From the NCBI RefSeq assembly GCF_964213995.1, contig NC_135823.1:26040001-26104000 (forward strand): a stretch of DNA of 64,000 nt, given 5' to 3'. Within the stretch, counting starts at the first letter, position 1. The number at the start of each line of letters is the position of its first letter. The position numbers and the translations under genes are program-made. The stretch is from Mustelus asterias. Its lineage: Eukaryota. This document shows, piece by piece, positions 1,723-62,589 of the stretch. Below the pieces are notes generated by a model that saw nothing but the letters and a program-made list of their open reading frames with translations, had not been told where the DNA came from and did no database searches.

Positions 1723-1775
1723 CCCCACATCTTTCCATACTTCTTGTAACATTCTGTATCAAACCCAAACATACC
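1723..1775 (-). CDS. CYP3A: CYP3A-like copy A, exon 3 (GMFGFDTECYKKYGKMWG); gene continues beyond the left window edge
   Basis: 53 bp, ccag acceptor and gtgagt donor intact, FDxECxKKYGKxWG motif. Confidence 0.92.
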
Positions 1776-3152
1776 CTGGCCAGGAAGAAAACAAAATCAT
1801 TAGCGACAGTATTCACATAATACTAAGACGAAAGACAATTATTTATTGCTATGTGTGATGTTTTAGGCCCCATTCAGAATGAGCATGGCGGCTGTGGGGT
1901 TGCGGGGTAGATGCAGAATTTCACACCATCTGGCCAGTTGTTGGTTTCCCAGCAGCAACATCACACCCCAGATCATTTTCCCCAAAGGCAGGATGCCTGG
2001 CAGCAGATCTGCCCGACCACAAGTGGCAAGTAGCCAATTCAGCTGGTCTGAAATGTCTGCTGAGGCCTACTGACCGAGGCTGACTGGAGTTGTGAGGGAA
2101 CTGTCGTTGCCTGAAGGTGGTCTCAAGGGGGTGGGGTGGGTCAGTGCTACAGGCAGGCTTTGACTCATTTGACTGCCTGGCTTCAGCTGCATCCGCAGGC
2201 CATTCCCTCCACATTACTGCCTGGCTGCTGGTTCTAAACTTCATTTACAACTGTGAAAAGTTAGAAATAAAAGGCGCCTGCTCTCATATTTACCCAAAAA
2301 GGCAGCCTGCTGCTTCGTTAGTATTGGGAAAGCCTTTCATTTGCCCTTCAACTTCTAGAGCCAACCCGTCATGCTTACTCTGCCTATTAGCCAACTCAGA
2401 GAAAGTCACTGCTGGGTGACTGTTGCCCACACAGTACCGGGCTTCTGACCCCAATTTAATTTGTCATAGGAAAGGAACATAAACAAAATAGAAAAGCAAA
2501 ATTCGGTGATCATTGCACGAGGTCAGGAAAATATGTAAGTCAATAATTAAATAATGGTGCATAGAAACAGAACTCAGCCATTGAACCCGTCAAGCCTGCT
2601 CCACCATTCAGTTAGATCATGGCTGATCATCAACCTCAACACCACAGCACTTTCCCACACTAACTGCAAATCTCTTCATGTCATTATTCTCCAGAAATCT
2701 ACCCCGTCCTGTTTTGAACATGGCTCAATCAATGAGTGTCCCCAGACCTCTGGAGTAGTGAATTCCAAAGATTTTACCCTCTCAATCTCAGAAAAAGGGA
2801 CAGGCCATTTAAGACAACGTTGAATGGTTTTAGACTCACCAACCTTATCTACATCCTGCCAGAACCTGCAGGAATTTTGAAAGTTTCAATTATGTCATTT
2901 CATAATCTTCAAAACTCAAGGGGACACAGAGTCAGTCTCCCCAATCTCTCCTCATAAGACAATCCCTTCTGTTACGATCCCAGTTGGTGTTACTACTAGA
3001 TGGGAAGGTGCTAGAATGGAACCCTGGCTCAGAAGACCATAATGTTATCTTTAAGAAAATATGGAGGAACAGAGTCACAGGAATGCCAAATATCTTTTAA
3101 TAACAAAAAAACTTTATTAAACATAAAAAATTTGATTATAATACAATACGAC

Positions 3153-3499: not shown

Positions 3500-3794
3500 T
3501 GTGGTGAACCATCGTTGGTTCACCACTGGGGTTTGTTACTATGTTACTGTTGGGCTAGGGTGTTGTTACTGTGGGGGTTGTACTATGTTGTTGGGTTAGG
3601 GTGTTTACCTGTTATAAGAGTTATCATGGCACATTCCAGTGGGGTCCCGCCTCCGGTGGCGAGGTATAAGACCCCCTGCTCCGGCAGGACCCCTTCAGTC
3701 TGAACTGGTGTATTCGTGTTAGTAGTTCCATTGTTACTTTATTAAAGCCTTCAATACCGAAGCCTTGGTTCCATGTGCTTATTGACGCGCATCA
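3500..3794 (+). repeat. 5' LTR
   Basis: Identical by eye to 8058-8352; contains TATAAG and ATTAAA. Confidence 0.96.
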
Positions 3795-3853
3795 ATTTAA
3801 TAAAGTAAACAGAAAACTCACAACTGTACGACAAGAAGAAAAAAACAGAGAGT

Positions 3854-6800
3854 ATGGAACAGGTTCTAAAACCGGATCGTCTGACACTGGACCCACGTGC
3901 GGTCGGTGCAGCTAACACATTCGACCATTGGTGGAAGTGCTTTGAGGACTACCTGGCAGCCTCGGTAGCTATCACTACAGACAGTGATAGACTCCAGGTC
4001 CTCCACGCAAGGGTAAGCGACACGATTTACCTAGCCATTCGTGCAGCTCCCACTTACCAGGGTGCCGTCGAGCTCCTAAAGAAAAGGTACACTATGCCAC
4101 TCAACGAGATACATGCTCGTTACCTCCTCGCTACACGACGTCGGCAGTCGGGCGAAACCATGGAGGATTATGCCAATGAGCTCCTGCAGCTTGCCAGGGG
4201 TTGCGACTGTAAGGACGTCTCCGCCGAACAGTATATGTACGACCTCGCCCGAGACGCGTTCGTAGCAGGGGTAGGGTCCTCGTACATCAGGCTTAAATTG
4301 CTAGAAAAGGGGAAACTCAACTTGACCCAGGCAATGGAGATGGCCGTGAGGTTGGAGGCGGCGTTGAAGAGCTTGGCGCTGTACCCCGAGGACCACGTGC
4401 AGTCAACGTGGTTGGAGCAAGCTCAGCTCCCTCCTCGCCCCGCTAACCCGCGCTCCCAGATCGATTCGACGACGGCGGCAGCTCCAGGTGGCCAGCGATG
4501 CTATTTTTGTGGAGGGGCCAAGCATCCACGGCAACAGTGTCCGGCAAGAACGGCAATCTGCAGCCAGTGTGGTAAAAAAGGCCACTACGGCAAAGTCTGC
4601 AGGTCCAAGCCTAAAAACGGCAGTGTAGCTTGTAACCCTCCAGAACGGAGACAATCTCCTTCGGCATCGCAGTACCCACGAGGTCCGACCACGTGCGATC
4701 CCAGGATGGCGCCATCGTGGCTGACGGAGGAGGAGGAAGACCACCAGGAGTCGCTGCGCTTGGCGCCCTCGGCCACATGCGATTCATGGGGGCGGCCATC
4801 ATGGTCCACGACGACTAGGAGCGACCAGCAGGGGTCCTCAGCGTCCACATCGGCAGCATGCAGCAGCGACCAGCAGGGGTCCTCAGCATCCACATCGGCA
4901 GCATGCAGTGGCGCCCAGGGGCCAACGGTGGCGTCGATCTCTCTGGATCAGACCAGGCATTACAGACTGGAACATTCTATGATGGAGGTAAAGGTTAGTG
5001 GCAGAACTGTGAATTGTCTGTTTGACAGCGGAAGCACCGAAAGTTTCATACACCCTGAAACTGCTAAAAGGTGTGGACTCCGGATTCTCCCTGCCAAACA
5101 GACAATTTCCATGGCATCACGGTCCCGGTCTGTACCGATCCAAGGACGATGTATGGTAACTCTTGAGGTACAGGGCACAATTTACGAGCAATACAGGCTC
5201 CTTGTGTTACCTCACCTTTGCGCGCCAATTCTCCTTGGACTAAACTTTATGGCCCACATGAGGAGTGTGATCCTACAGTACGGTGGGCCACTCCCTTCAC
5301 TGGCAGTAGGGAATCAGCCGCAGCCTCCAAATTGCCCAAAGCGCCCCGCATGCAATCTATCCACCCTGAAAATTACTACACCATCCCTTTTTAAAAATCT
5401 GGTTCCTGGCTGCAAGCCCATCGCTACTAAAAGTAGGCGTTACAGCGCTGAGGACCGGATCTTTATTAGATCTGAGGTTCAGCGGCTCCTCAAGGAAGGG
5501 ATCATACAGGCCAGTGCTAGTCCGTGGAGAGCGCAGGTCGTGGTAGTCAAAAGCGGGAACAAACCTCGGATGGTCATCGACTATAGTCAGACCATTAATA
5601 GATACACGCAGCTGGATGCGTATCCTCTCCCGCGCATTTCTGATATGGTCAATCAGATTGCGCAGTACCAAGTGTTTTCTACCATAGACCTTAAGTCCGC
5701 CTACCATCAACTCCCCATCCGCCCAGAGGACCGACAATATACGGCTTTTGAGGCGGATGGTCGTCTATACCAATTCCTCAGGGTTCCATTTGGTGTCACC
5801 AATGGGGTCTCGGTCTTCCAGCGTGCTATGGACCGAATGGTGGACCAGAACGGGTTGCGGGCTACCTTCCCGTACCTGGATAACGTCACCATCTGCGGCC
5901 ATGACCAGCAGGACCACGACACTAATCTCCAACACTTTCTGCGCACTGCATCTCGCCTGAACCTGACCTATAACAGGGAGAAGTGCGTATTCCGTACGCG
6001 CAGGTTAGCCATCCTCGGATACGTGGTGGAAAACGGGGTCATTGGCCCTGATCCAGACCGTATGCGCCCACTCACTGAACTTCCCTTGCCCGCTAGCACG
6101 AAAGCACTGAGGAGATGCCTCGGGTTTTTTTCGTATTATGCACACTGGGTCCCCAACTACGCGGACAAAGCTCGTCCGCTCATTAAGTCCACGACCTTTC
6201 CACTTACGCCGGAGGCCCAATTGGCCTTCAAGGTTTTGAAGAGCGACATCTCGAAAGCCACGATGCACGCGGTGGATGAATCCATCCCTTTCCAGGTGGA
6301 GAGTGATGCATCTGACTTCGCCCTAGCCGCCACACTAAACCAGGCAGGCAGGCCCGTCGCGTTCTTTTCCCGCACCCTTCAAGGCCCAGAAATTCGGCAC
6401 TCAGCGGTGGAGAAGGAGGCTCAGGCCATTGTGGAGGCAGTCAGACACTGGCGCCATTACCTGGCAGGGAAGCGGTTCACCCTGATCACGGATCAACGAT
6501 CCGTGGCGTTTATGTTCAGTAACACGCAGAGGGGCAAGATCAAGAACGATAAGATCTTGCGGTGGAGAATTGAGCTCTCCACCTATAATTACGATATTAT
6601 GTATCGTCCAGGGAAGCTCAATGAGCCCTCGGATGCCCTCTCGCGCGGAACATGCGCCATCATGCAGGAGGACCGCTTGAAGGCTCTCCACAATGATCTG
6701 TGTCATCCTGGAGTCACCAGACTCTACCACTTCGTCAAAGCCCGCAACCTGCCTTACTCGGTGGAGGATGTCAGGTCAGTGACTAGAAGCTGTCGGATTT

Positions 6801-7972
6801 GCGCAGAATGCAAACCACACTTTTATCGACCAGACCGGGCACAATTGGTCAAGGCCACTCGCCCTTTTGAGAGGCTGAGTGTGGATTTTAAGGGCCCCCT
6901 TCCCTCAACGGACCGGAATGTCTATTTCCTCAACATAATAGACGAGTATTCCCGGTTTCCGTTTGTTTTCCCCTGTGCGGACACGTCAACTGCCACCGTC
7001 ATTAAGGTTTTCAGTGAACTTTTTACCCTGTTCGGGTACCCCTGCTACATTCATAGCGACAGGGGCTCGTCGTTCATGAGCAACGACTTGAGGCAATTCC
7101 TGCTCTCATTCGGGATTGCCTCTAGTAGAACCACGAGCTACAACCCTAGGGGTAACGGACAGGTGGAAAGGGAGAATGCTACAGTCTGGAAGGCTGTCCT
7201 ACTGGCACTGAAATCCAGGGGCCTTCCAGTCTCCCGTTGGCAGGAGGTCCTTCCAAATGCGCTCCATTCTATCCGCTCCCTCCTGTGTACGGCAACCAAT
7301 GCTACTCCCCACGAGAGGATGTTCTCATTCCCTCGGAAGTCGTCCTCGGGGACCTCATTGCCAGCCTGGTTGACGTACCCAGGACCCGTCCTTCTGCGGC
7401 GCCATGTGAGGGCTCGCAAGTCCGACCCCTTGGTCGAACCGGTCCAACTCCTCCACGCCAACCCTCAGTATGCCTATGTGGCATATCCTGACGGGCGAGA
7501 GGACACTGTCTCCATTAGAGACCTGGCGCCCGCAGGGGACGTAGCAACTCCTGTCGCTCCTATTCCCCCAGTCACGAATCCACTACTCCTCATTGCTTCC
7601 CCAGACGTGGCGCGGTCAGCACCGGGACCAGTGCACAACACTTTTACTCCCATGTACAGCTTGCCTGAGACTCGGAGATCGGCGCCACCATCATCACCAC
7701 CACCACTACGACCAAACGTTCCAGGATCCCCTGCACCATCGCCTCACCAGGGCCGGCCGGCCCGGGAGTCCTTGAGGGGACAGCCAGACGTTGCTTTGGA
7801 AAGAGCGCCACCACAAGCACCTGCTCCGGTTTCGCAACCGGTGTTGAGGAGATCGGCACCTGCTCCGGTTTCGCAACCGGTGTTGAGGAGATCGGCACCT
7901 GCCCCGGTTTCGCAACCGGTGTTGAGGAGATCGCAGCATCGGTGCGGTCCTCCAGACCGTCTGGACTTGTGA
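3854..7972 (+). CDS. Gag-Pol polyprotein, 1372 aa (gag zinc knuckles, protease LFDSGS, RT YLDN, RNase H DAS, integrase HHCC and DDE)
   Basis: CxxCxxxxHxxxxC knuckles; PR-RT-RH-IN order; VDFKGP, HSDRG and GQVER integrase motifs. Confidence 0.96.
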   Translation: MEQVLKPDRLTLDPRAVGAANTFDHWWKCFEDYLAASVAITTDSDRLQVLHARVSDTIYLAIRAAPTYQGAVELLKKRYTMPLNEIHARYLLATRRRQSGETMEDYANELLQLARGCDCKDVSAEQYMYDLARDAFVAGVGSSYIRLKLLEKGKLNLTQAMEMAVRLEAALKSLALYPEDHVQSTWLEQAQLPPRPANPRSQIDSTTAAAPGGQRCYFCGGAKHPRQQCPARTAICSQCGKKGHYGKVCRSKPKNGSVACNPPERRQSPSASQYPRGPTTCDPRMAPSWLTEEEEDHQESLRLAPSATCDSWGRPSWSTTTRSDQQGSSASTSAACSSDQQGSSASTSAACSGAQGPTVASISLDQTRHYRLEHSMMEVKVSGRTVNCLFDSGSTESFIHPETAKRCGLRILPAKQTISMASRSRSVPIQGRCMVTLEVQGTIYEQYRLLVLPHLCAPILLGLNFMAHMRSVILQYGGPLPSLAVGNQPQPPNCPKRPACNLSTLKITTPSLFKNLVPGCKPIATKSRRYSAEDRIFIRSEVQRLLKEGIIQASASPWRAQVVVVKSGNKPRMVIDYSQTINRYTQLDAYPLPRISDMVNQIAQYQVFSTIDLKSAYHQLPIRPEDRQYTAFEADGRLYQFLRVPFGVTNGVSVFQRAMDRMVDQNGLRATFPYLDNVTICGHDQQDHDTNLQHFLRTASRLNLTYNREKCVFRTRRLAILGYVVENGVIGPDPDRMRPLTELPLPASTKALRRCLGFFSYYAHWVPNYADKARPLIKSTTFPLTPEAQLAFKVLKSDISKATMHAVDESIPFQVESDASDFALAATLNQAGRPVAFFSRTLQGPEIRHSAVEKEAQAIVEAVRHWRHYLAGKRFTLITDQRSVAFMFSNTQRGKIKNDKILRWRIELSTYNYDIMYRPGKLNEPSDALSRGTCAIMQEDRLKALHNDLCHPGVTRLYHFVKARNLPYSVEDVRSVTRSCRICAECKPHFYRPDRAQLVKATRPFERLSVDFKGPLPSTDRNVYFLNIIDEYSRFPFVFPCADTSTATVIKVFSELFTLFGYPCYIHSDRGSSFMSNDLRQFLLSFGIASSRTTSYNPRGNGQVERENATVWKAVLLALKSRGLPVSRWQEVLPNALHSIRSLLCTATNATPHERMFSFPRKSSSGTSLPAWLTYPGPVLLRRHVRARKSDPLVEPVQLLHANPQYAYVAYPDGREDTVSIRDLAPAGDVATPVAPIPPVTNPLLLIASPDVARSAPGPVHNTFTPMYSLPETRRSAPPSSPPPLRPNVPGSPAPSPHQGRPARESLRGQPDVALERAPPQAPAPVSQPVLRRSAPAPVSQPVLRRSAPAPVSQPVLRRSQHRCGPPDRLDL

Positions 7973-8057
7973 ATCCTGTGATTTTTCTGTTATTGTCTGT
8001 TTATATGACCTGTTTTTCGTCCACCCCGCCACCTTTTGTTCTTAAAGGAGGGGTGAA

Positions 8058-8352
8058 TGTGGTGAACCATCGTTGGTTCACCACTGGGGTTTGTTACTAT
8101 GTTACTGTTGGGCTAGGGTGTTGTTACTGTGGGGGTTGTACTATGTTGTTGGGTTAGGGTGTTTACCTGTTATAAGAGTTATCATGGCACATTCCAGTGG
8201 GGTCCCGCCTCCGGTGGCGAGGTATAAGACCCCCTGCTCCGGCAGGACCCCTTCAGTCTGAACTGGTGTATTCGTGTTAGTAGTTCCATTGTTACTTTAT
8301 TAAAGCCTTCAATACCGAAGCCTTGGTTCCATGTGCTTATTGACGCGCATCA
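8058..8352 (+). repeat. 3' LTR
   Basis: Follows the PPT; identical by eye to the 5' LTR. Confidence 0.96.
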
Positions 8353-9951: not shown

Positions 9952-10045
9952 CTTTCTGTAATGGTGAACTGTTCCAATGAATGGCAGCGGCCTTGGGCCC
10001 GGAACTCCAATCCGTTTAAATAACCCATATGGTAAAACACTGTAC
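9952..10045 (-). CDS. CYP3A: CYP3A-like copy A, exon 2 ([31 protein letters not shown])
   Basis: 94 bp, AG/GT bounded, proline-rich hinge PGPxPLPFxG; same size as mammalian CYP3A exon 2 as recalled. Confidence 0.92.
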
Positions 10046-12510: not shown

Positions 12511-12977
12511 GGGTGGGGGAAAATCACCTCACCCCTCCTGCAGCGCTGTTCCTCACATTCCCCCCTCCAAATTAAGGAGAGGGAGCCCTTAGGAGGATGT
12601 TGATGACCTGGGGACTGCTATACAAGGTGTCCAATAAGGCACGGCACTAACTTTGTTTCCATAGGGGGAGGCCTCTGAATTTCTGGAATAAATGCGGATA
12701 AGAATGTTGATCAAATCTTGACAAATAAATGTCCCAGAAAGTCTCTTGAGCTGTTTAAAAATTCCCCTTTAAACGTCTATCATCCCACCAGTGAATGAAA
12801 AGTTTTTTTATAGTTAATATAAGCTCCCAGGACTATTTGAACCTCTGCAACAAGTTAGTTGTTGTAAGGAGAGGATCTTTTACATGAACATACCACACGT
12901 GATCCAAACAGCAGTTCAATCCCACCTCCCTGAAAAGGAAGTTGGCAATTATAGATTTGCTACATTTTTTACACCAA

Positions 12978-13130
12978 GGGCCCTATTTTACCAAGAATTC
13001 GCGCCCGAAAATCGTGGTAAATTCGGGTGTCGGGCCTTTAACGCGATCTGCACCCGAATCCGAGCAGATCGCAGCTTTACCGACACCCGATTCTGGCGCG
13101 GATCCAGTCCGTGCCCGGATTGGGCGGCCC
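12978..13130. mobile_element. Truncated CpG-rich DNA transposon end with internal hairpin
   Basis: Starts gggccctattttacc; nested inverted repeats tcgggtgtcgg/ccgacacccga and gcgatctgc/gcagatcgc; absent from the other arm. Confidence 0.5.
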
Positions 13131-13738
13131 CATGGTACATTGGGGAGACCATGCAGATGCTACGACAACGGATGAATGAACACCGCTCGACAATCACCAG
13201 GCAAGAGTGTTCTCTTCCTGTGGGGGAGCACTTCAGCGGTCACGGGCATTCAGCCTCTGATCTTCGGGTCAGCGTTCTCCAAGGCGGCCTTCACGACACA
13301 CGACAGCGCAGAGTCGCTGAGCAGAGACTGATAGCCAAGTTCCGCACTCATGAGGATGGCCTCAACCGGGATCTTGGGTTCATGTCACACTATCTGTAAC
13401 CTCCACGACTTGCCTGGGCTTGCAAAATCTCACTAACTGTCCCGGCTGGAGACAATACACATCTCTTTAACCTGTGCTTAACCCTCTCTCCACTCACATT
13501 GTCTGTACCTTTAAGACTTGATTACCTGTAAAGACTTGCATTCCAACCATTATTTTGTAAATTGAGTTGTGTCTTTATATGCCCTGTTTGTGAACTGAAA
13601 TCCCACTCACCTGACGAAGGAGCAGCGCTCCGAAAGCTAGTGGCTTTTGCTACCAAATAAACCTGTTGGACTTTAACCTGGTGTTGTGACACTTCTTACT
13701 GTGCTTACCCCAGTCCAACGCCGGCATCTCCACATCAT
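13131..13738 (+). mobile_element. Penelope-like element, 5'-truncated (GIY-YIG endonuclease C-terminus plus terminal repeat)
   Basis: YIGET..LRQRMNEH...PVGEHF...AEQRLIAKFRTHEDGLNRD; 3' end shared with other copies in the window. Confidence 0.9.
13608..13642 (+). ncRNA. Minimal hammerhead ribozyme motif in the Penelope terminal repeat
   Basis: cac-CTGACGA-a-ggagc-agc-gctcc-GAAA-gcta-gtg: conserved core, stem II, short stem I and palindromic agct stem III. Related copies at ~14504, 44520, 60223(-), 61447(-) and 62228. Confidence 0.72.
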
Positions 13739-13801
13739 GAGTATTTTCTCCCAGGATCAGAGCCGGGAAATAAGCGAGAAAGAAATCAATCAAACACTTA
13801 C

Positions 13802-13899
13802 CAAGCCAACAGGAGCAGGAAAGTGAGGAGAAGAATCCAGGTTTGGTCGGACAGAACAGCCCGGATCAGCCCCAGACTCTGTGCGAAAAGGACAGGCAT
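13802..13899 (-). CDS. CYP3A: CYP3A-like copy A, coding exon 1 (MPVLFAQSLGLIRAVLSDQTWILLLTFLLLLA-W, membrane anchor)
   Basis: ATG at 13899-13897, 98 bp, phase-2 GT donor (gtaagt), CYP3A-type S-x-x-TW-x-LL hydrophobic anchor, TATA ~55 bp upstream; joins exon 2 in frame. Confidence 0.88.
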
Positions 13900-13951
13900 C
13901 CTGTGAGAAGTCAGAGAGAGGATACTGGGAGTCTGAGCTGGGCACTGGGAG

Positions 13952-13959
13952 TATTTATA
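13952..13959 (-). promoter_or_regulatory. TATA box of CYP3A copy A
   Basis: TATAAATA on the minus strand ~55 bp upstream of the exon-1 ATG; the same motif is conserved upstream of copy C. Confidence 0.75.
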
Positions 13960-14411
13960 GAGAGAGTCAGTCACACTGAGGCAGAAACAGCGAGCGGGCT
14001 GTTCAAACAAGGAAATGATGTGGAGATACATAAAAAGTCTCACAACACCAGGTTAAAGTCCAACAGGTTTATTTGGTAGCACAATACCTAACATCACTGT
14101 GGGTGCACCTACACCATACAGACTGCAGTTGTTCAAGAAGGCAACACACCATCATACCAAAAATCAAACATTGCAGTTTTAAATAATGTGGGTTTTATTA
14201 GCTATGTTTAAAGTTTATTTATTAGTTTCACAAGTAGGCTTGTATTAACACTGCAATTAATTACTGTGAACATTTCTAAAAATAGATTTTTTAAAAATTT
14301 AATGACACTGGGGTACAAACTGCTGCATTAAAAATTACACCTTGTCCAGACAATATTCCAATCAGTTTATAAATCTCAGATAGAGTCACTCACTGCCTTT
14401 CCTGGTTTGCA

Positions 14412-14597
14412 CAGTAAGAAGTCTCACAACACCAGGTCAAAGTCCAACAGGTTTATTTGGTAGCACAAGCCACAAGCTTTCGGAGCACTGCTCCTTCACC
14501 ACTTACCTGACGAAGGAGCAGCGCTCCGAAAGCTTGCGGCTTGTCCTACCAAATAAACCTGTTGGACTTTAACCTGGTGTTGTGAGACTTCTTACTG
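14412..14597. mobile_element. Foldback pair of Penelope terminal repeats (~85-bp arms)
   Basis: cagtaagaagtctcacaacacc... and ...ggtgttgtgagacttcttactg form a near-perfect palindrome. Confidence 0.9.
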
Positions 14598-15890
14598 AGA
14601 AAATACTCACACAGATGAACTGAACTCACTGTTAGCATGAGAAAAGTTGACAGCATTTCTCACCGAGTTTGTCTTTGTTTTGAACTGTTGAGGGCTCCTC
14701 AGTCTCTGCCTTACCGCCCCCCCCCCCCCCCCAATCCCCATGGAGCAGAGCCGGGGACGGTGCTGGAGACTCGGGGCTGATTCCGGGACATTCCCTCTCT
14801 TCCTGCCCTCTGAGTGCGGATCCCAACAAATCAGCCTTTTGGGGCTGGCGGGGGTGGGGGGGTGGGGGGTGCGGTGTGGTCTGAGTTAATGCAGATGACC
14901 CCAAGGATGAGATTTATCCCAGTGGGAATTTTGGTGGGAAGATCATTCGATTTCAATGGGATCTGGGGGATACATTCCCAGCATTGCAGATTCAAATCGA
15001 TTTCCTGGAGTCAGACATATGTTCAATATGAAACTTTGCAAAAATGTGTAAAAAAATGTAATCTAATGTAGCAAATCTATAATTGCCAGCTTTTTCAGGG
15101 AGGTGGGATTGAACTGCTGTTTGGATCACGTGTGGTATGTTCATGTAAAAGATCCTCTCCTTACAACAACTAACTTGCTGCAGAGGATTTCAAGTAGTCC
15201 GTTATATTAACGATTTTAAAAAACTTTTCATTCACTGGTGGGATGGTAGAGGTTTAAACAGCTCCTGAGAAGTTCTGGGACACTTTTGTGTTAAGACTTT
15301 ATCAACATTCTTATCAGCATTTATTCCAGAAATTCTAAAGCTTTCCCCTATGGACGCAATGTTAGTGCCGCATCTTATTGAACACCTTGTATAGCACTCC
15401 CCAGGTCATCAACATCTTCCCAAGGGGTCCTTCTTTAATTTAAAACCATAAAGAATAGGAACAGGAGTAGGCTGTTCAGCCCCTCAAGCCCACAACACTT
15501 CAGTAAGATCATGACTGATTCAACATTCCTCGCATTCACTTTCCTGCCCTTTCTCCGTGACCCTTAATTCCCTTACTGATCAAAAATCTATCTATCTCAG
15601 CCTTAAATATATACAAGGACTTTGCCCTCACAGCTCTGTAGCAAAAGTCACATCCTCCGAGTGAAGAAATTCCTCTTCATCTGAATCTTAAATTGGCACC
15701 TCTTTATTCTGAAGCGATGACCTCTAGTCCTAGACTCTCTCATAAGTGGAAATGTCCGCTCAGCTTTTACCCTGTCAAGCCTCTTAAGAATCCTATATGT
15801 TTCAATAAGATCACCTCTCATTCTTCTAAATTCCAGTGAGTAGAGTCCCAGCCTGTTTAACCTTTCCTCTTAAGACAATTCCTTCATACC

Positions 15891-22800: not shown

Positions 22801-25061
22801 GGTACTTAACAAGGCAGTAGTTCTTACAAACATCAGCTCCGGACTCTCCAGTTGAAGAATTTTGAAGTGCTGTCTCTTGTTGTGTTCTTGACTGTAGTTT
22901 ATCTTCTCTTGGTTGTGTGCTGAATACAAAATAGCTTCTTTGTACCCTTATCCCTACCCTGTCTCTTGGTGTGTTGGCTTAAGTTAGTTTAGGCCAACTT
23001 GACTGGTGTACCATTGAACAGGGTGCAACCTAGTTTTAGCCAACTTGATTAGTTTACCATTACTTCTTTATCAAATTGTGTTTCTTTCCCTAGCCCCTGT
23101 AAGATGTTTTGTTTATTAAGCAGGAGAGCATTTAGCTAATATCATTAACACAGCCAATTTCCTTATTGCTTTTGTACAGGTCAGTGGATGATAAATATGT
23201 TGATTGAACTCCTAACAGAATTTCTCCCTGACATCGGTTTTGCAACAGCTAGATATCCGTGCCCATACGTCGGTAACTTTGTGCCTCACTTCTCTGCATT
23301 TTCCAAATTATTAATTCCATGTTAGCCTACATATTTCCCACGTTGAGGCCAAAGTGAAACTGATCCTCAAAACTACTATATATAATGATTCATAAAATCA
23401 CTGAAAACACCGTGACAAATATTTTGCAATCTCCAATGTACAGATTTTGTTTAATCTCCCTATGATAGATTCGTAACACACATGCACAAAAAGAAACCAT
23501 ATACTTTCATGCTTCAATCAGGTCCTGTCTAACTTGCATAATCAATTTAATATGGCTTCGGCCCTGTAGCTGCATACGTTCTGCACAGGTTTTTAGCATT
23601 AGCATTAACATTAACTTGGGATCAGAAGATGTTCAGGAAGTTGGGGAATATTGTACCCAAATTTTGTAAGGTACCAGTGTAACTATACCTTCAGCTCATC
23701 GATGAATTTAACCATCGCCTCCTTGTAATTGTCCATTTGAGGCAGCAACTATCTCAAGTCTCTCTAGTCCCTCTCCATTTCTTCCTGCATTTATGAGTTT
23801 CCACCTTCTGACTTAGTGCCCTGGAGTGTGCTGATGCACTGGGTCAGATCATCATTAGGGCAGGCAAGTATAGTTACCTGTATGTAATTTGACCCATCAT
23901 TGTGACCAACATAGTTTAACATAATTTGGGATGAAAGCCACCCTCCCGACCTCCTGCAAGAGGTTTTGTTTATTAAGCAAGAGAGTATTTAGCTAATTTG
24001 GTTAACACAGCACTGTTCATGTTAGCTATTGTCCTTGGTTGTACAGGTCCATGGAAGGCAAACGTGTTTATCCAGTTCCCAACACAATTTTTCCCTGACA
24101 TGAGCTTTTATGATAGCTTGACATTTCTCTCCACCATATGTCAGAATCTTTGACTCAATTAATAAATCATTCTTGCTTCTCAGCATTTTCCAAAATCATA
24201 ATTACATATTAACTTGCATATTAGCAGCAGCCAGTATGGTGCTATTAGGAAGGGCATTCCAGGATTTTGACCAAGTGATCACCGTATTTTGCTTTTCTAT
24301 TATATTTATGTTCCTTCCCTATGACAAGTTAAATTGGGGTCAGAAGCCCGGCACTGTGTGGGCAACAGTCACCCAGCAGTGGTTTTCTCTGAGTTGGCTA
24401 ATAGGCAGAGGGCAGGCTCACAATCCGAGTAAGCATGACGGGTTGGCTCTAGAGGTTGAAGGGCAAATGAAAGACTTTCCCAATACTAACGAAGCAGCAG
24501 GCTGCCTTTTTGGGTAAATATGAGAGCTGGCGCCTTTTATTTCTAACTTTTCACAGTTGTAAAATAAAGTTTAGAACCAGCAGCCAGGCTATTATTGTGG
24601 AGGGAATGGCCTGCAGATGCAGCTGAAGCCAGGCAGTCAAATGAGTCAAAGCCTGCCTGGAGCACTGACCCACCCCACCCCCTCGAGACCACCTTCAGGC
24701 AACTACAGTTCCCTCACAACTCCAGTCAGCCTCGGTCAGTAGGCCTCAGCAGACATTTCAGACCAGCTGAATTGGCTACTTGCCACTTGTGGTCGGGCAG
24801 ATCTGCTGCCAGGCATCCTGCCTTTGGAGAAAATGATCTGGGGTGTGATGTTGTTGCTGGGAAACCAGCAACTGACCAGATGGTGTGAAATTCTGTATCT
24901 ACCCCCTCCCCCATCCCCCCCCAAACATCCCCATGCTCACTCCCAATAGGGCCAAATATCCCTGATATCTCTTTCCCTACAAATATGGTAAGAAATAATT
25001 GTTTTGCCTTTTAGTATTATGTGAATACTGTCGCTAAAGGTTTTGTTTTCTTCCTGGCCAA

Positions 25062-27981: not shown

Positions 27982-28080
27982 GATTTACGATGGGCAGCAG
28001 CCCATTCTCTCTATCATGGATATCGACTTGATTAAAACCGTCTTCGTAAAAGAGTTTTACACTCTGTGCACCAGAGGCGG
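27982..28080 (+). pseudogene. CYP3A: Copy B exon 4 (IYDGQQPILSIMDIDLIKTVFVKEFYTLCT...), 1-bp deletion
   Basis: 99 bp versus 100 bp in the paralogous exon at 53228-53327; the TNRR end is broken. Confidence 0.9.
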
Positions 28081-29632: not shown

Positions 29633-30505
29633 ATGAACCAGTTTGGACCTGCAGCTCCAATAAATTTGACAAATTTTCCCTCAATAAAACCTGATCCATC
29701 CAGTACACCACCTCCAAATATAATGACTAATAGCACCGCACTGTGATAGAGATACCTGGAGCACAAGACTCAGTATGAGACCAGATGGCAATTAGGTTTT
29801 AAGCAAGAGGTTGCAGGACTTGATGCATGAAATTGATCCAAATGAGCAACTTGATGAAGCTGTCGAAGAAATGCTTTTGCAGATGGCTGATGATTTTATT
29901 GAAAGTGTAGTGAGTGCCGCATGTCACCTAACACGTCACCGCAAGTCAAACACACTGGAAGTCAAGGATGTTCAACTGCATTCTACATCCCGGTAGAGTG
30001 GTTGACGGAGGGATCCAGTTACCTCACTAATAGGGAATTAAATTTGATGGATAATTTGTCATGCCGAGGAAACACTGCAGGACATGCTGTGGACATTTGC
30101 CATATAACCGTTGCCTTATCCGGGTCTGGCTTTATACCACCAGCGGTAAGCTGGTGGCCAGTGTAGATGACCTGGCTAACCCTGAATCTGCATTTACAGC
30201 TTCAACTGTCTGGTCCAGCAACATCTGGCAAAGTGATTCCATTTGCCACCATTATTGCAATGCTTATTAAATCTGAAGCATGCGCTTTTATGTGGATGCT
30301 GGCCACTACAGTTCAGGCAGGATGTGCTCTGTACCGAGGGAACTTCCATTGCTCTAATTCATTGATGCTCCTCTTGGATTGCTCATTCAGCATGCAGATA
30401 CTAATGGTAGACTGTAATGTGGAGCAACTGTTTGCACACCACATCACTTTGTATTCCACGCATTATACAGTCTCTTATGTGTTCATCAGCAAGAGTACCA
30501 AATAA
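29633..30505 (+). pseudogene. TAF12: TAF12 processed pseudogene in intron 4 of CYP3A copy B
   Basis: MNQFGPAAPINLTNFPSIKPDP..., then LQDLMHEIDPNEQLDEAVEEMLLQMADDFIESVVSAACHLTRHRKSNTLEVKDVQLH contiguous without introns; frameshift/stop near 29745; probable C-terminal remnant ISKSTK* near 30485-30505. Confidence 0.92.
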
Positions 30506-37981: not shown

Positions 37982-38954
37982 GGGAGTGTTAAACTAACTG
38001 TTGGTACCAGCACCAATGCTGCGCCTCTCCCACCCTCAACACTGACCTTTTCCTAATTTATTCTCACAACTAGATAGGAAGTGGCTACAACAACATTGCT
38101 ACGGGTAGCCGGTGAATATTGTGTTCCTTTACAGTTACTGAAGTTTAGCAGGTAGGGTGTACAGTTTGTGTTCAGTCTGGGTGCAGACTGCTCTACAGTC
38201 AATGGAATTGCTGGTGGGTTTCTCCAGCCTCCCACTGGAAAGTGGAAATGGCAGGGATGGTGGCTGCTTTCACCCTTTCTCTTGGGCTTTGGCTGAGGTT
38301 ACAGTGGGAGATCAGGAGAGTCTATGATAGACCTATCCAAATTTTTTTGGTGGGGCAGGGATGCACATTTGCATATTTTTCTCACTCAAGGGGCCGATGA
38401 GCCTATTCCAGAAAGATGAGGCTGAATTTCAAAAAGAAGTTTGAGGTTTTAAGGAAAGCAAGAATTGCTGAGCTAAAGTACAGCAATATCTCAGTAATAA
38501 ATTAACTTTGAAAAAGACTGAGTAAATACAAATGTCCGGAGGATGCGAGGGTTAGTGCGTATATATGAACAACTTGACCTCGTCCTCCCCAGGCTCCAGC
38601 CCCGCCATTGCCTTGCTTCCCTTGACCCAGCAGCCCTCAGCATACACGCACTAATGCCAATGTTCGCTGCTCCGCCAATCAGAGACTGTTTCTCTCCCCC
38701 ATTTGCAGCTGATAGGCAGACAGAAGCAAAAACAGGAGAGAAATGGGCCTTGATTTGGAGGGGCAGCTTAATGAAGAATCTTCCTTTCAAACACCTCTTT
38801 GGCTGGGATTTTGTAAAATTGGTGCCAGAGGCTGGATATACTCGGAATTGAACCCAGGTTCCCAGCACCATGAGGCAGCAGTGCTAACTACTATGCCAGT
38901 GTGCCACACACTAAATCCAGCAAATCCAGAGCACTGGATAAAGAGAAAAGCGGA

Positions 38955-40940
38955 GGCCGGATACACCCGGAGCGGTTTTGCAGGACAGGTACGCCCGGAG
39001 CGGTTTTGCGGGCCAGATACGCCCGGAGCGGTTTTACGGGCCAGATACGCCCGGAGCGGTTTTGCAGGTGGGATGCACCCGGAGCGGTTTTGCGGGCCGG
39101 ATACGCCCGGAGCGGTTTTGCGGGCCGGATACGCCCGGAGCAGTTTTGCGGGCCGGATACACCCGGAGCGGTTTTGCGGGCTGGATACGCCCGGAGCGCT
39201 TTTGCGGGCCGGATACGCCCAGAGCGGTTTTGCGGATGGGATACGCCCGGAGCGGTTTTGCAGGCCGGATACGCCCGGAGCGGCTTTTGTCAGCCGGGAT
39301 ACACCCGGAGCTGTTTTGCGGGCCGGATACGCCCGGAGCGCTTTTTCGGGCGGATACGCCCGGAGCGGTTTTGCAGGCGGGATACGCCCAGAGCTGTTTT
39401 GCAGGTCGGATACGCCCGGAGCGCTTTTGCAGGCGGGATACGCCCAGAGCTGTTTTGCAGGCCGGATACACCCGGAGCGCTTTTGCGGGCGGATACGCCC
39501 AGAGCGCTTTTGCGGGTGGGATACGCCCGGAGCGGTTTTGCAGGCCGGATACGCCCGGAGCGGCTTTTGTCAGCCGGGATACACCCGGAGCTGTTTTGCG
39601 GGCCGGATACGCCCGGAGCGCTTTTTCGGGCGGATACGCCCGGAGCGGTTTTGCAGGCGGGATACGCCCAGAGCTGTTTTGCAGGCCGGATACGCCCAGA
39701 GCGCTTTTGCAGGCGGGATACGCCCAGAGCTGTTTTGCACGCAGGATACACCCGGAGCGCTTTTGCGGGCGGATACGCCTGGAGCGGCTTTTGTCAGCCG
39801 GGATACGCCCAGGGCTGTTTTGCGGGCCGGATACGCCCGGAGCGCTTTTGCGGGCGGAAACGCCCGGAGCGGTTTTGCGGGCTGGATACGCCCGGAGGGG
39901 TTTTGCGGGCCGGATACGCCCGGAGGGGTTTTGCGGGCCGGATACGCCCGGAGGGGTTTGCGGGCCGGACACGCCCAGAGCGGTTTTGCGGATGGGATAC
40001 GCCCGGAGCGGTTTTGCAGGCCGGATACGCCCGGAGCGGCTTTTGTCAGCCGGGATACACCCGGAGCTGTTTTGCGGGCCGGATACGCCCGGAGCGCTTT
40101 TTCGGGCGGATACGCCCGGAGCGGTTTTGCAGGCGGGATACGCCCAGAGCTGTTTTGCAGGCCGGATACACCCGGAGCGCTTTTGCGGGCGGATACGCCC
40201 AGAGCGGTTTTGCGGGTGGGATACGCCCGGAGCGGTTTTGCAGGCCGGATACGCCCGGAGCGGCTTTTGTCAGCCGGGATACACCCGGAGCTGTTTTGCG
40301 GGCCGGATACGCCCGGAGCGCTTTTTCGGGCGGATACGCCCGGAGCGGTTTTGCAGGCGGGATACGCCCAGAGCTGTTTTGCAGGCCGGATACACCCGGA
40401 GCGCTTTTGCGGGCGGATACGCCCAGAGCGCTTTTGCGGGTGGGATACGCCCGGAGCGGTTTTGCAGGCCGGATACGCCCGGAGCGGCTTTTGTCAGTCG
40501 GGATACACCCGGAGCTGTTTTGCGGGCCGGATACGCCCGGAGCGCTTTTTCGGGCGGATACGCCCGGAGCGGTTTTGCAGGCGGGATACGCCCAGAGCTG
40601 TTTTGCAGGCCGGATACGCCCGGAGCGCTTTTGCAGGCGGGATACGCCCAGAGCTGTTTTGCACGCAGGATACACCCGGAGCGCTTTTGCGGGCGGATAC
40701 GCCTGGAGCGGCTTTTGTCAGCCGGGATACGCCCAGGGCTGTTTTGCGGGCCGGATACGCCCGGAGCGCTTTTGCGGGCGGAAACGCCCGGAGCGGTTTT
40801 GCGGGCCGGATACGCCCGGAGGGGTTTGCGGGCCGGATACACCCAGAGCGGTTTTGCAGGCGGGATACGCCTGGAGCGGTTTTGCGGGCAGGATACGCCT
40901 GGAGTGCCTTTGTGGGCTGGATAAGGCTGGAGCAGTTTGC
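38955..40940. repeat. CpG-rich 28-bp tandem satellite (~70 units; gccggatacgcccggagcggttttgcgg) with higher-order structure
   Basis: Direct reading; the variant cggcttttgt recurs at 39281, 39561, 39785, 40037, 40261, 40485 and 40709. Confidence 0.97.
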
Positions 40941-41466
40941 AGACTGAATGCAGCCCACTGGCTTTACTTTCGACAAACCTGGTCTACAAAACATCTGCAC
41001 AGCATGTTTAAGCTACAACATTTTCTTTTCAAAGCCCGGGACGCAGTGCATTTTCAAAAAAAAGATGCCAGATTATCTGTTAATAGCCTCATTTAAAGAG
41101 GATGTTGGGGAGGGAAGACAATAGATGAGAATATCTGTAACCTTGATGTGAATGAAAGCTGTCGGATATTTTCTTAGTCAACATCCATTAGAATTCTTAT
41201 GTTAAATTGTATTTAAGTGACAGCCTCAATTATTCCATCTGCTTTCCAAATTTGTCTTTGAGCAGATATGAATGGGTGACAGTCTCGACTGCTCTTCTCT
41301 GTGGAGAGTCCTGGGTGGGTTTTGCTTCCAGCATCTCTGGAGGAAACACGCTCTACTTCCCCCTTTGCACCTCTCTGGAATTGCAGGATCTGGGACTTGC
41401 CTTCTAAGAAACCTGTTTGTGTGCTGTCATAGCTGAGTCCTCACATGGTTCTTGTTGAATTCTCAG

Positions 41467-53227: not shown

Positions 53228-53327
53228 TCGCCTGTTGGTGAACAAAGTGTAAAATTCTTTTATAAAAATGGTTTTAACCAAGTCAAGATCCGCGAGGGGG
53301 AGAATGGGGTGATGCCCATCATAAATC
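53228..53327 (-). pseudogene. CYP3A: Orphan CYP3A exon 4 (IYDGHHPILPLADLDLVKTIFIKEFYTLFTNRR), acceptor AG changed to CG
   Basis: 100 bp, gtaagt donor; flanks are homologous to 27650-28130 (inverted), and 54500-54765 is homologous to 305-425. Confidence 0.88.
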
Positions 53328-53846: not shown

Positions 53847-54777
53847 ATAGAACAATCCAGGCAGTTACACTACAACCAGATCAATGGGAAACAATCTCGC
53901 CTCACTTCAGCATCACAGCTGTAGCCCGAATCAGGTGTTGGAATCCAAATGGCACTCGAATAAAGATGAGTGAGTTCACTCTGCTTCACTTCAGACTCTC
54001 ACAAACAATTTATAATCCATAAATCATGTTTAAGTCAAAAGCGCTCTGGCTGAATTGACAGAGGGTAAATTCCAATTGGCCAGCACTGCTGGAACAGATT
54101 GCAAGTCTTCTAATTGCCAGAGCTGCAGATTCAGTGAGATTACTGGGGGAAGGAATGAGTACAGTCGCAGCAGGTCACTAGAAATGAATTGCTTAGTGTA
54201 TTTCCACCTCCCCAGCAAATCTGACTGCCAGGCTGCTGCCTGACTGACTGGCAGGTGGGTAATCCTGCGGTAACAAGCTGTAGCTAGGGACCAGGCAGTA
54301 GGCAGGGAAAAAAGAGGATAGCGTTGGGGGTGGGACATTGTGGAATGAGGTGCCCAGGAGAGCATTAGAATAGTTGGGTGGGTGGGCCTTAGGTAACCCA
54401 CCCACCCAAAAAAAACCATAAAATCAATGGAGGAAGGCAGCCCCCCAGCCCAATACCACGCCTCTCAAAGAACATTCTGAGCCAAAGGCAAAGGGGAATT
54501 AAACTTCTCAGCCTGACAGAAATCACCTCCAGGATCAAATTACTTTGTGAGAATTTTGGGACATTTCAAAGAACAAAGAACAGTGCAGCACCGGAAACAG
54601 GCCCTTCGGCCCTCCAAGCCTGTGCCGCTCCTTGGTCCAACTAGACCAATCGTTTGTATCCCTCCATTCCCAGGCTGCTCATGTGACTATCCAGGTAAGT
54701 CTTATTTCCTGGGGTCTCCTCCAAACTCTTGCCAGTTTTCAATGGTTGGTATTCCTGGTATAGACACATTCCCTCGC

Positions 54778-58688: not shown

Positions 58689-59971
58689 TCCTGCATACCC
58701 AAGTCCAGGTCATTAATATATCATGAAGAGCAATGTGCCTAATATTGACCTTGGGGGAACAACACTGTCCCTCCTGTCTGAAATACCAGTACTCAACCTA
58801 CTGTCTGCTTTCTGACTTTTAGCAAATGTTGGATACATGCAACTACTGCACCTTTAATTCACATAGACTTCAATTTTGTAAACATAACTTTTATGTGTTA
58901 CTTTATCAAATACTAGTTTCTCTAAATTACAATTTATATACAGAATCTTGGATATATAAATCAACTCTTGCACACACCCCTACTGACTCACTACATACAC
59001 TGCAGTCTGAAAGACGTGCTAGTTAGATGTATTGGCTATGCTAAATTCTCCCTCAGTGTACCTGAACTGGTGCCGGAGTGTGGCAACTAGGGGATTTTCA
59101 CAGTAACTTCATTGCAGTGCTAATGTAAGCCTACTTGTGGATCTGGACAACATTCAGGCTTGGGCTGACAAGTGGCAATTAATTGAGCCCAGTACGTAAC
59201 ATTCAAACCACAAGTGTCAGGTAATGAACATCATCAACAAGAAGATCACATATATATATAGCCACATAAACACTATGGCTTTTCCATCAGGTCAGAGGCT
59301 AGGGGTTCTGTGTTGAATAATTCATCTCCTGATTCCCAAAGCCCCTCCATCATCTACAAGGCACAAACCAGGAGTTTGATGGAATTATCTTTGCTGTGCC
59401 AGGTTCAGTGCAGCTCCACCCCCAACAATCTAGAAGTTCAACAAAACCCAGGCCAAAGCCTTTGGTTTGGCATCCCATCCACCATGTTAAACATTCATTT
59501 CCTCAACCACTGATGCACCGTAATCCCAGTACCATTGTCAAGATGCAGTGTAGTAACTTGCCAAGATTCCTTCAACAGTAACATTCAAACCCAACTGTTA
59601 TACCACCTAGAATAACATGGGCAGCATACCTAACATCACTGTGGGTACACCTACACCATACAGACTGCAGTAGTTCAAGAAGGCAGCTCACCATCATATC
59701 AAAAATCAAACATTGTAGTTTTAAATAATTTGGGTTTATTAGCTATGTTTAAAGTTTATTTATTAGTGCTACTGCAATGAAGTTACTGTGAAAATTTCTA
59801 AAAAGGGATTTAAATTTTTTTTAATGACACTGGAGTACAAACTGCTGCATTAAAAGTGACACCTTGTCCAGACAATGTTTCAATCAGTTTGTAAATCTCA
59901 CTGCCTTTCCTGGTTTGCTCCACATCATTCCCTGGTTTGAACAGCCTGCCCTCTCCCTCAGTGTGACTGAC

Positions 59972-60113
59972 TCTATAAATACAGTAAGAAGTTTAACAAC
60001 ACCAGATTAAAGTCCAACAGGTTTATTTGGTAGCAAAAGCCGCAAGTTTGTTGTTAAACTTCTTACTGTGTTTACCCCAGTCCAACGCCGGCATCTCCAC
60101 ATCTATAAATACA
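59972..60113 (+). promoter_or_regulatory. Duplicated TATA box of copy C flanking a short Penelope-derived insertion
   Basis: tctataaataca at 59972-59983 and 60102-60113. Confidence 0.8.
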
Positions 60114-60166
60114 CCCAGTGCCCAGTTCAGACTCCCAGTATCCTCTCTCTGACTTCTCTCAGGATG

Positions 60167-60692
60167 GTAAGAAGTCTCACAACACCAGGTTAAAGTCCAA
60201 CAGGTTTATTTGGTAGCAAATACCATAGGCTTTCGGAGCTTGCTGCTCCTTCGTCAGATGGAGTGGTCTCTGTTCTCCAACAGTGCACAGACACAGAAAT
60301 CAAGTTACAGAATACTAATTAGAATGCAAATCTCTACAGCCAGCCAGGTCTTAAAAGGTACAGATAATGTGGTTGGAGGGAACATTAAACACAGGTTAAA
60401 GAGATGTGTATTGTCTCCAGACAGAACAGCTGGTGAGATTATGCAAGACGAGGGGCGAGCTGTGGGGGTTACTGATAATGTGACATAAATCCAACATCCC
60501 GGTTTAGGCCATCCTCATGTGTGCGGAACTTGGCTATCAGTTTCTGCTCAGCGACTCTGCGCTGTCGTGTGTCGTGAAGGCCGCCTTGGAGAACACTTAC
60601 CTGAAGATCCAAGGCTGACTGCCCGTGACTGCTGAAGTGCTCCCCCACAGGAAGAGAACAGTCTTGCCTGGTGATTGTCGAGCGGTGTTCAT
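60167..60692 (-). mobile_element. Penelope-like element inserted at the copy C start codon
   Basis: GIY-YIG C-terminal ORF 60469-60774(-); TSD tcaggatg at 60159-60166 and 60693-60700. Confidence 0.9.
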
Positions 60693-60697
60693 TCAGG

Positions 60698-60795
60698 ATG
60701 CCTGTCCTTTTCGCACAGAGTCTGGGGCTGATTCGGGCTGCTCTGTCCGACCAGACCTGGATCCTTCTCCTCACTTTCCTGCTCCTGTTGGCTTG
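60698..60795 (+). CDS. CYP3A: CYP3A-like copy C, exon 1 (MPVLFAQSLGLIRAALSDQTWILLLTFLLLLA-W); functional status uncertain
   Basis: 98 bp, gtaagt donor, near-identical to 13802-13899; separated from its 5' UTR by a Penelope insertion. Confidence 0.85.
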
Positions 60796-61388
60796 GTAAG
60801 TGTCTGATTGATTTCTTTCTCGCTTCTTTTCCGGCTCTGACCCTGGGAGAAAATACTCTCACAGCCGAACGGAACTCACTGTTAGCATGAGGAAAGTTGA
60901 CAGCATTTCTCACCAAGTTTGTCTTTGTTTTGAACAGTTGGGGGCTCCTCAATCTCTGCCCCCCCCCCCCCCTTCCCCCTCCCCTCCCAATCCCCGCGGA
61001 GCGGAGCCGGGGACGGTGCTGAAGACTCGGGGCTGATTCCGGGACATTTCCTCCTCCTCCTCCTGTCCCCTGAGCGCGGATCCCAACAAACCCAGCCTTT
61101 TGGGGCTGGGAGAAAGAGGGAGGAAGGGGGGGTCTGTGTTAATGCAGGTGATCTCAGGGAGGAGATTCATCCCAGTGGGAATTCCTTGGGGTGAGGGGTT
61201 GTTGTTGTGGGTACAGAGAAGCTGATTTTAATGGGGTTTAGAGGGAGGAACCAGTTCTACCGTCTCTGCAGATTCACGTCGTCTTTAACCAGTGTCTGTC
61301 CCCAGAAACTATTAAAACCTGCAGCGCCCAGAGTTTTTCTCCCTTTGGGAGGAATTTATGAGATTTTACTCTGAGGAGATAATCCATA

Positions 61389-62358
61389 GTAAGAAGTCTC
61401 ACAACACCAGGTTAAAGTCCAACAGATTTATTTGGTAGCAAAAGCCACTAGCTTTTGGAGTGTTGCTCCTTCGTCAGGTGAGTGGGAGTTCTGTTCACAA
61501 ACTCAATTTACGAAATAATGGTTGGAATGCGAGTCTTTACAGGTAATCAAGTCTTAAAGGTACAGTCAATGTGAGTGGAGAGAGGGTTAAGCACAGGTTA
61601 AAGAGATGTGTATTGTCTCCAGACAGGATAGTTAGTGAGATTTTGCAAGCCCAGGCAAGTTGTGGGGATTACAGACAGTGTGACATGAACCCAAGATCCC
61701 GGTTGAGGCCGTCCTCGTGTGCAGAACTTGGCTATCAGTCAAGGAAAGGATGTCCCGAGGCATGGTACATTGAGGAGACCATGCAGATGCTACGACAACG
61801 GATGAATGAACACTGCTCGACAATCACCAGGCAAGAGTGTTCTCTTCCTGTTGGGGAACACTTCAGCGGTCACGGGCATTCGGCCTCTGATCTTTGGGTA
61901 AGTGTCGTTCTTCACGACACACGACAACGCAGTCGCTGAGCAGAAACTGATAGCCAAGTTCCGCACACATGAGGACGGCCTCAACCGGGATCTTGAGTTC
62001 ATGTCATACTATCTGTAACCCCCATGACTTACCTGGGCTTGCAAAATCTCACTAACTGTCCTGTCTGGAGACACTACACATCTCTTTAACCTGTGCTTAA
62101 CACTTTCTCCAATCACATTGTCTGTACTTTTAAGACTTGATTACCTGTAAAGACTCGCATTCCAACCATTATTTTGTAAATTGAGTTTGTGTCTTTATAT
62201 GCCCTGTTTGTGAACAGAACTCCCACTTACCTGACGAAGAAGCAGCGCTCCGAAAGCTAGTGGATTTTGCTACCAAATAAACCTGTTGGACTTTAACCTG
62301 GTGTTGTGAGACTTCTTACTGTGTTTACCCCAGTCCAACACCAGCATCTCCACATCAT
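61389..62358 (+). mobile_element. Penelope-like element with inverted upstream terminal repeat
   Basis: 61389-61738 is antisense to the 3' part of 61739-62358; TSD gagataatccata / gagatgatccata. Confidence 0.9.
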
Positions 62359-62589
62359 GAGATGATCCATATCCATTGGATTTCATCCCAGGCTGGAATT
62401 GGAAACATTTCACTCTGATTGAAATCCTTCTTCTTGTGGATATTTATCATTATTCCATTTTTGTATGAACTATTTTGATTGATCAGTTTATCATAGAATC
62501 ATATAGTACAGAAAGAGGCCATTTGGCCCATCGAGTCTGCACCGACCACAATCCCCCCAGGCTCTAATCCCAGGTATTTACTCTGTTAA

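Follow-up and report, generated by a model that had tools for sequence, protein, structure and literature searches.

The window, by which is meant the whole 64-kb stretch of Mustelus asterias DNA that was analysed, contains no N and appears in self-comparison as a large inverted duplication with its centre near 14000. Two head-to-head CYP3A copies, A and B, lie on the two arms, and a third 5' region belongs to copy C. Assignment of the cluster to CYP3A is supported by the P450 domain and the closest named relatives: exon 10 of B matches the Pfam p450 model (E=1.2e-13), and all five hits obtained with it among 16 candidates are shark CYP3A-like, the best being the NCBI M. asterias CYP3A model P0001. 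Between A and B there is only one exon-1 cassette, here called E. In the list below, U denotes the upstream region and I0 the beginning of intron 1.

1724-1776, minus strand: exon 3 of copy A, AG/GT intact; A runs past the left end of the window
9952-10045, minus strand: exon 2 of copy A, protein identical to P0001
12850-12977, minus strand: inner end of the homology between A and B intron 1, near-identical to 15046-15180
12978-13130, no strand: GC-rich insert, in A only, cut off at 13130 by a Penelope-like arm
13739-14015, minus strand: cassette E (drawn to 14025 in the preliminary description), 33 of 33 residues as in P0001
13952-13959, 13899-13802 and 13801-13739, minus strand: parts of E, namely the TATA box (followed by the 5' UTR), coding exon 1 and a stub of intron 1
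14609-15045, plus strand: I0, the 5' part of intron 1, confined to the B side and without a counterpart in A
20138-46630, plus strand: copy B pseudogene, exons 2-10 and 12-13
59627-61183, plus strand: 5' region of copy C, with the reference order U, E, intron 1

As annotated, the A protein uses E. The model P0001 matches E plus exons 2-3 of A exactly, which implies a junction from E to A, and the predicted A transcript reads through E in frame. Exon 1 is placed by tblastn at 13899-13801 and 60698-60796 and nowhere else in the window, and neither E nor U has a further copy at the centre, as the preliminary description had held; its coordinates are right throughout, including the splice positions 13802, 10045 and 20138. 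Upstream of the TATA box, E retains 56 bp of ancestral sequence.

The near-identical tract at 12850-12977 and 15046-15180 has ~2 mismatches in 130 against a background of 12-13% (P=6e-6) and may be either a conversion tract or a constrained element or intronic enhancer; its B copy now lies ~1.1 kb upstream of the TATA box of E. We take the adjacent GC-rich insert to be MITE-like, as a label only. Intron 2 of A holds an LTR retrotransposon (3500-8352) with 295-bp LTRs that are 100% identical, a 5-bp TSD and an open frame of 1387 codons. It appears to be very recent and is presumably of the Ty3/gypsy kind, again as a label only.

At copy C, U and E point the same way, whereas at the centre they point in opposite ways. 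Copy C has the 12-mer TSD T1 once, at 60847, that is, as an empty site, and a second 12-mer, T2, twice (59906 and 59928) around an 11-bp remnant of a Penelope tail. Two more insertions lie inside its E (59974-60111 and 60160-60700), one duplicating the TATA box and another the start codon. The start-codon insertion has a donor-like beginning and an acceptor-like end and may be spliced out as an additional intron at the 5' end, in which case an upstream ATG would remain out of frame.

Two further M. asterias CYP3A models, P0002 and P0006, start with the exon 1 of copy C, so that either may correspond to C. Across the three models 0-1 of 33 residues of exon 1 differ, and overall identity to P0001 is 87% for P0002 and 83% for P0006; homogenisation of exon 1 and the 5' end among the three paralogs is evident from these comparisons. 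An orphan CYP3A exon 4 (53228-53326, minus strand), with weak intron-3 homology at 54459-54765, encodes a protein nearer to P0002 and P0006 than to A, and is best taken as a fragment of a fourth CYP3A copy standing head-to-head with C.

Penelope-like insertions and split TSDs at the centre

Both T1 and T2 are split at the centre, and the halves adjoin ends of Penelope-like elements. The features concerned are given here together with an insertion that serves as the structural reference; P1 and P2 denote the insertions at T1 and T2, respectively.

13131-13738, plus strand: long Penelope-like arm with a GIY-YIG-like fragment of the 3' ORF, terminal repeat and tail
13616-13704, plus strand: left arm of an 89-bp inverted repeat, 5 mismatches against 14409-14497
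13739-13750, minus strand: left copy of T1, inverted
14004-14015, minus strand: copy of T2 beside E, inverted, one mismatch, adjoining a tail end
14016-14084, minus strand: p, the tail-bearing arm of P2, with ~30 bp replaced by 7 bp
14085-14409, plus strand: U, 325 bp of ancestral upstream DNA, left-truncated, pointing away from E
14398-14409, plus strand: copy of T2 at the end of U, adjoining a head end
14410-14596, no strand: fold-back of two head-end arms, h2 (14410-14497) and h1 (14499-14596)
14597-14608, plus strand: right copy of T1, located by 12-mer search
61376-62370, plus strand: unrearranged fold-back Penelope-like insertion (element 61388-62358), 12-bp TSD with one mismatch

These insertions are called Penelope-like on account of their structure, which matches published descriptions. 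Insertions of endonuclease-bearing Penelope-like elements are described as 5'-truncated, with an inverted 5' terminal repeat, a tail of 30-40 bp at one end only and a TSD of ~8-12 bp (PMC3846280, PMC8557442). An inverted 5' terminal repeat, a one-end tail and a TSD are present in the elements at 61388-62358 and 59981-60103; the former, given as 61376-62371, had already been proposed as a reference with a direct TSD. All Penelope-like copies in the window are 5'-truncated and at most ~620 bp long. The locus is thus like canonical insertions in its truncation, terminal repeat, tail and TSD (PMC3846280, PMC8557442) and unlike them in that the remnants here are non-coding 3' sequence and the ends of two insertions are scrambled. 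The only Pfam hit, GIY-YIG (PF01541), comes from a truncated fragment and reaches 15 bits against a cut-off of 22.6 (E=0.032). No hammerhead or other ribozyme family is among the three Rfam matches in 13000-15200, all of which are sub-threshold miRNA hairpins. By eye, the terminal repeat contains what we take to be a hammerhead-core-like motif.

Five Penelope-like insertion sites lie at CYP3A 5' ends (T2, TATA box, start codon, T1 and 61376) and one elsewhere (44515). Five of the six fall within ~3.3 kb (13131-14596 and 59918-62370; P=2e-6, post hoc), and the TSDs at the clustered sites have no obvious shared consensus. The arms h2 and h1 have 4 mismatches in 85 bp and enclose a 14-nt loop. 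The hairpin at 14410-14596 is predicted to be very stable as single-stranded DNA (-95.8 kcal/mol, z -20.6), which would fit fragility at fold-back centres.

The preliminary description had noted T1 twice at the centre in opposite orientation, each time at a Penelope end, between 89-bp inverted repeats with about 5 mismatches, and had proposed that one cassette of U and E was flipped once between these repeats. The observations are borne out. Allowing up to one mismatch, T1 occurs in the 64 kb at 13739-13750 (minus), 14597-14608 (plus) and 60847-60858 (plus) only, and of the centre copies the left one adjoins a tail end (13738) and the right one a head end (14596). The longest exact run within the 89-bp repeat (13616-13704 and 14409-14497) is 27 bp. 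When 13705-14408 is inverted in silico, the order becomes E, T1, tail arm, head arm, T1 and intron 1, all in the direction of B. This restores a direct 12-bp T1, a normal-looking fold-back insertion of Penelope type and the position of E ahead of B intron 1, as predicted, but leaves T2 inverted and U reversed against E.

The split of T2 (14004-14015 and 14398-14409) goes beyond that description. U itself contains a SINE-tail-like repeat at 14203-14274. Two extra pairs of 54-bp inverted repeats are present, 13645-13698/14031-14084 and 14031-14084/14541-14594. Inversion of 14058-14567 through the second pair, which has 2 mismatches, repairs T2 and turns U to point with E toward A, with T1 still inverted; inversion of E alone through the first was rejected, as it yields E-U-intron and not the ancestral order. 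From the signed-block order U, P2 head, P2 tail, E, P1 tail, P1 head, the present order is reached by a minimum of two reversals, along two routes, and both rebuild a C-like order in silico. A single flip of a joint cassette is therefore insufficient. The split of T1 and T2 at Penelope-like ends shows that exon 1 was once bracketed by two insertions: P2 separated it from U, and P1 stood in intron 1, 63 bp from the start of the intron. Today E stands reversed against both ancestral neighbours and on the far side of U.

Two homologous, oppositely oriented copies flank the segment. Exchange of both TSD pairs, the mark of Galileo-type inversions, is present by half for each candidate repeat pair: the 89-bp pair restores T1 only and the 54-bp pair 14031/14541 T2 only. 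Diagnostic sites all lie left of 13648 and none to the right, and the 54 bp that follow the last of them on the right show no reciprocal chimera.

At the subfamily sites 13639/13647 the bases are A/T in the long arm and in both arms of the 61388 element, but T/G in h1 and h2; in p the second of these sites is G. The long arm and h1 differ at 13639, 13641 and 13647, while the arms of the 59981 insertion, by contrast, have their variants in common. Being unlike h1, h2 and p, the long arm probably comes mostly from a third insertion, P3, and we infer a chimera of P3 with the tail of P1; three insertions (P1, P2 and P3) would explain the arm variants without repeated mutation. The 5' end of P3 abuts the A-specific GC-rich insert at 13130, and its TSD partner is absent from the 64-kb window.

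Decay of copy B and relative ages

Copy B had been called a pseudogene, and its lesions bear this out. The exon-3 acceptor has changed from AG to AA at 25060-25061, three frameshifts lie near 28073, 31369 and 46306 (exons 4, 5 and 12), and the substitutions G324E and G462R are present. Exon 11 was not found between exons 10 and 12 (two weak hits lie elsewhere, E 0.079 and 0.86), and neither was the 5' part of exon 12; a lesion in exon 8, where the aligner call is ambiguous, was excluded from the count. Of the 43 amino-acid differences between A and B, 12 were set aside because their direction could not be assigned; the derived residues number 25 in B and 6 in A (400 codons), and no decay is seen in A. 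Without an intact reading frame and catalytic motifs, B must be regarded as dead and beyond revival. Its intron 8 contains a GC-rich tandem array of ~2 kb (38954-40957; unit near 28 bp), and a short stretch of its intron 4 (~29740-29985) looks like a processed copy, now decayed, of the gene for a histone-fold TFIID subunit.

Intron 1 differs between A and B at 241 of 1841 sites (~12-13%, from four blocks with the near-identical tract left out), and intron 3 at 30 of 783 sites (3.8%). Divergence thus ranges from 3.8% (3-785/25281-26063) to 13% (10540-12850/15180-19000), with the middle of intron 2 unalignable, which suggests that conversion between these inverted copies has been patchy. Private changes in the four centre arms number 5 over 334 sites, counted in columns with at least 4 arms; this is a lower bound that leaves shared and recurrent changes uncounted. 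At the age of intron 1, 20 such changes would be expected (P=0.0001), and at that of intron 3, 6.3. This suggests that P1 probably inserted once, after the 12-13% split of A and B. An old shared insertion before the split was rejected on arm age, its late-conversion form alone surviving, and the fit between the intron-3 age and the arms would make copying between A and B at that time possible.

The arm ages are 1.5% (0.5-3.5%) and 9/357. For B, the neutral (dead) time comes to 2.4-2.7% (+/-0.7-0.9) per lineage, assuming 2.2 replacement sites per codon and an omega of 0.1-0.2. The death of B and the insertions would then be roughly coeval, as would be expected of cause and effect, though without proof of it. 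In non-coding sequence, U+E differs from C at 23 of 378 sites (6%) and I0 at 29 of 268 (9-11%; Fisher p=0.039). This is a hint that E and I0 may come from different copies, non-significant with CpG masked (22/372 and 22/244, p=0.15).

Routes by which exon 1 may have come to serve copy A

The reading that we favour, with somewhat more confidence than doubt, is that E was moved by inversion, so that exon 1 and the core promoter of B ended on A and B then decayed. It is supported by the opposite halves of T1, which inversion restores, together with the empty T1 site at C, and by the similarity of the B dead time to the arm ages. The missing TSD partner of P3 counts against it, as the full exchanged-TSD signature is absent. 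Transfer of exon 1 from B to A had been put forward in the preliminary description and is likely, short of proof, since a copy-and-delete history fits the sequence too. That A lost its own promoter and exon 1 first is one of several possible orders, and A bears no trace of decay.

One exact route can be sketched, although we regard it, taken alone, as tentative. P3 would once have stood in intron 1 of A as a third, 5'-truncated copy, and ectopic recombination between it and the oppositely oriented tail arm of P1 would have inverted the inter-gene DNA and swapped the 5' ends, leaving the 89-bp repeat as a scar. A break at the P2 hairpin would then have been mended in such a way that U was flipped and the DNA as far as P1 was lost. 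This deletion would have removed the original promoter and exon 1 of A and the intergenic DNA and left B headless, its decay coming after loss of the 5' end. Upstream of A there now lie the 56 bp of ancestral sequence above the TATA box, followed by Penelope remnants, the reversed U and B intron 1.

The chief rival reading, possible if doubtful, is that E was always A's own. A cassette U-P2-E-P1 would have been copied between the inverted paralogs by gene conversion or duplication, followed by reciprocal deletions: in B, a deletion running from an arm of P2 to the like-oriented arm of P1 would have taken out E; A would have lost the beginning of its first intron; and p would have been joined to U by a deletion at the centre. 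Such a history would leave T1 and T2 split just as they are, with an identical distribution of the subfamily variants. It also draws on the 5' homogenisation (0-1 of 33 residues in exon 1 against 87% and 83% overall), and the P2 tail remnant between the two T2 copies at C suggests that one insertion has already spread between paralogs. The patchy identity of A and B (3.8% in intron 3 against 13% in intron 1) and the smaller distance of U+E than of I0 to C point the same way, but the latter difference is the one that loses significance under CpG masking. Moreover, one copying across two palindromic insertions and three deletions are needed, compared with two events for inversion, and the arms are younger than the 12-13% split would allow, so that conversion would have to be late.

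Non-homologous cut and paste is unlikely. Here a module of arm, E and arm would have broken at two hairpin centres and been religated in inverted orientation on the upstream side of U, with the 5' end of A lost in the same complex event. Two of the three signed-order breakpoints do fall at fold-back centres, and the stability of the 14410-14596 hairpin speaks for breakage there; yet the long arm and h1 would then be one insertion, and they differ at the three subfamily sites, unlike the arms of the 59981 insertion.

We consider it very unlikely that a single inversion of U+E, following loss of the A promoter, created a segment that is still reversible or polymorphic, as had been suggested. The restoration of T1 and of a normal-looking fold-back speaks for such an event, but the orientations of T2 and U call for at least two reversals. 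Efficient recombination requires 134-232 bp in mammalian mitosis and 300-500 bp in human meiosis, although in human alpha-globin matches of <50 bp have sufficed where repeats are close, which leaves room for rare somatic flips (PMC2583991). Measured by this mammalian yardstick, which may not hold in a shark, 89 bp with 5 mismatches are not long near-identical repeats, and toggling on the 27-bp exact run is unlikely. The arms of the A/B duplication, in which exact runs reach 153, 123 and 86 bp, would be better substrates. Nor are both orientations usable: with B disabled downstream, a back-flip would only break A by removing its exon 1, with no gain, and A is without sign of a dead interval. 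The locus is best read as an old, probably fixed scar and not a working genetic switch.

An assembly artefact at the repeat-rich palindrome centre is most improbable: tandem and inverted Penelope structures do disturb assemblies, especially short-read ones (PMC8557442), but the window has no N, the centre repeats are at most 608 bp with private substitutions, and an assembly error would yield neither the lack of I0 in A nor a decay of B about as old as the arms.

A wider conjecture, improbable as a whole, would join several of these elements. Penelope-like elements would insert preferentially at the CYP3A promoter, and their fold-back ends would serve as handles for recombination, through which one paralog could hand its minimal promoter and first exon to another. 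A would have been rewired to the 56-bp upstream core plus B intron 1 as its new upstream region, including the 130-bp element in two near-identical copies, and intermediate or opposite orientations would still segregate in houndsharks.

Comparison with known systems

Human CYP3A43 and CYP3A4 form a head-to-head pair whose exon 1 is exchanged at the RNA level by trans-splicing between intact genes. The shark locus is similar in its head-to-head CYP3A genes and in an exon 1 common to paralogs, but here the DNA is rearranged and one gene is lost. PXR, the usual regulator of CYP3A, appears to be lost in the elasmobranchs examined (PMC6539745). Given this apparent loss, A, annotated as intact with 56 bp of ancestral upstream DNA, would offer a natural test of what drives CYP3A in sharks.

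Inversions generated by Galileo and BuT5 are described from Drosophila buzzatii and D. mojavensis, and there the diagnostic sign is that both TSD pairs have been exchanged (PMC2775673, PMC3355041). The shark locus has in common with them oppositely oriented transposon copies, inverted TSD halves as proof of inversion and regulatory DNA moved between paralogs (there Hsp68a/b, inversion 2r). The Drosophila cases as reported concern DNA transposons, inversions of chromosomal scale and exchange of both TSD pairs (PMC2775673, PMC3355041), in contrast to Penelope-like fold-backs, a segment of <1 kb today and one TSD restored per repeat pair. In the virilis group, inversions are credited to another element and the role of Penelope is indirect, as far as the cited account goes (PMC6278893).

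At eri-6/7 of C. elegans, several insertions of one family (Polintons) likewise lie at one gene, with local exon inversion, deletions and repeat remnants (PMC11414722). There, however, both orientations segregate and trans-splicing rescues function (PMC11414722), whereas the shark locus is known in a single orientation, needs no more than cis-splicing to A and has a dead donor gene.

A literature search, with most subscription papers outside its scope, found no published description of this locus. The two split TSDs make it an unusually legible record of the way in which Penelope-type fold-backs may rewire or kill genes of a vertebrate detoxification cluster. The locus would work like transposon-mediated promoter capture and not like a textbook single inversion, nor would it count as a genetic switch of a novel type. 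In Drosophila and C. elegans, inversions driven by transposons are already known to carry regulatory DNA from one paralog to another or to reshuffle exons, and the shark CYP3A cluster would be a fresh instance of them.
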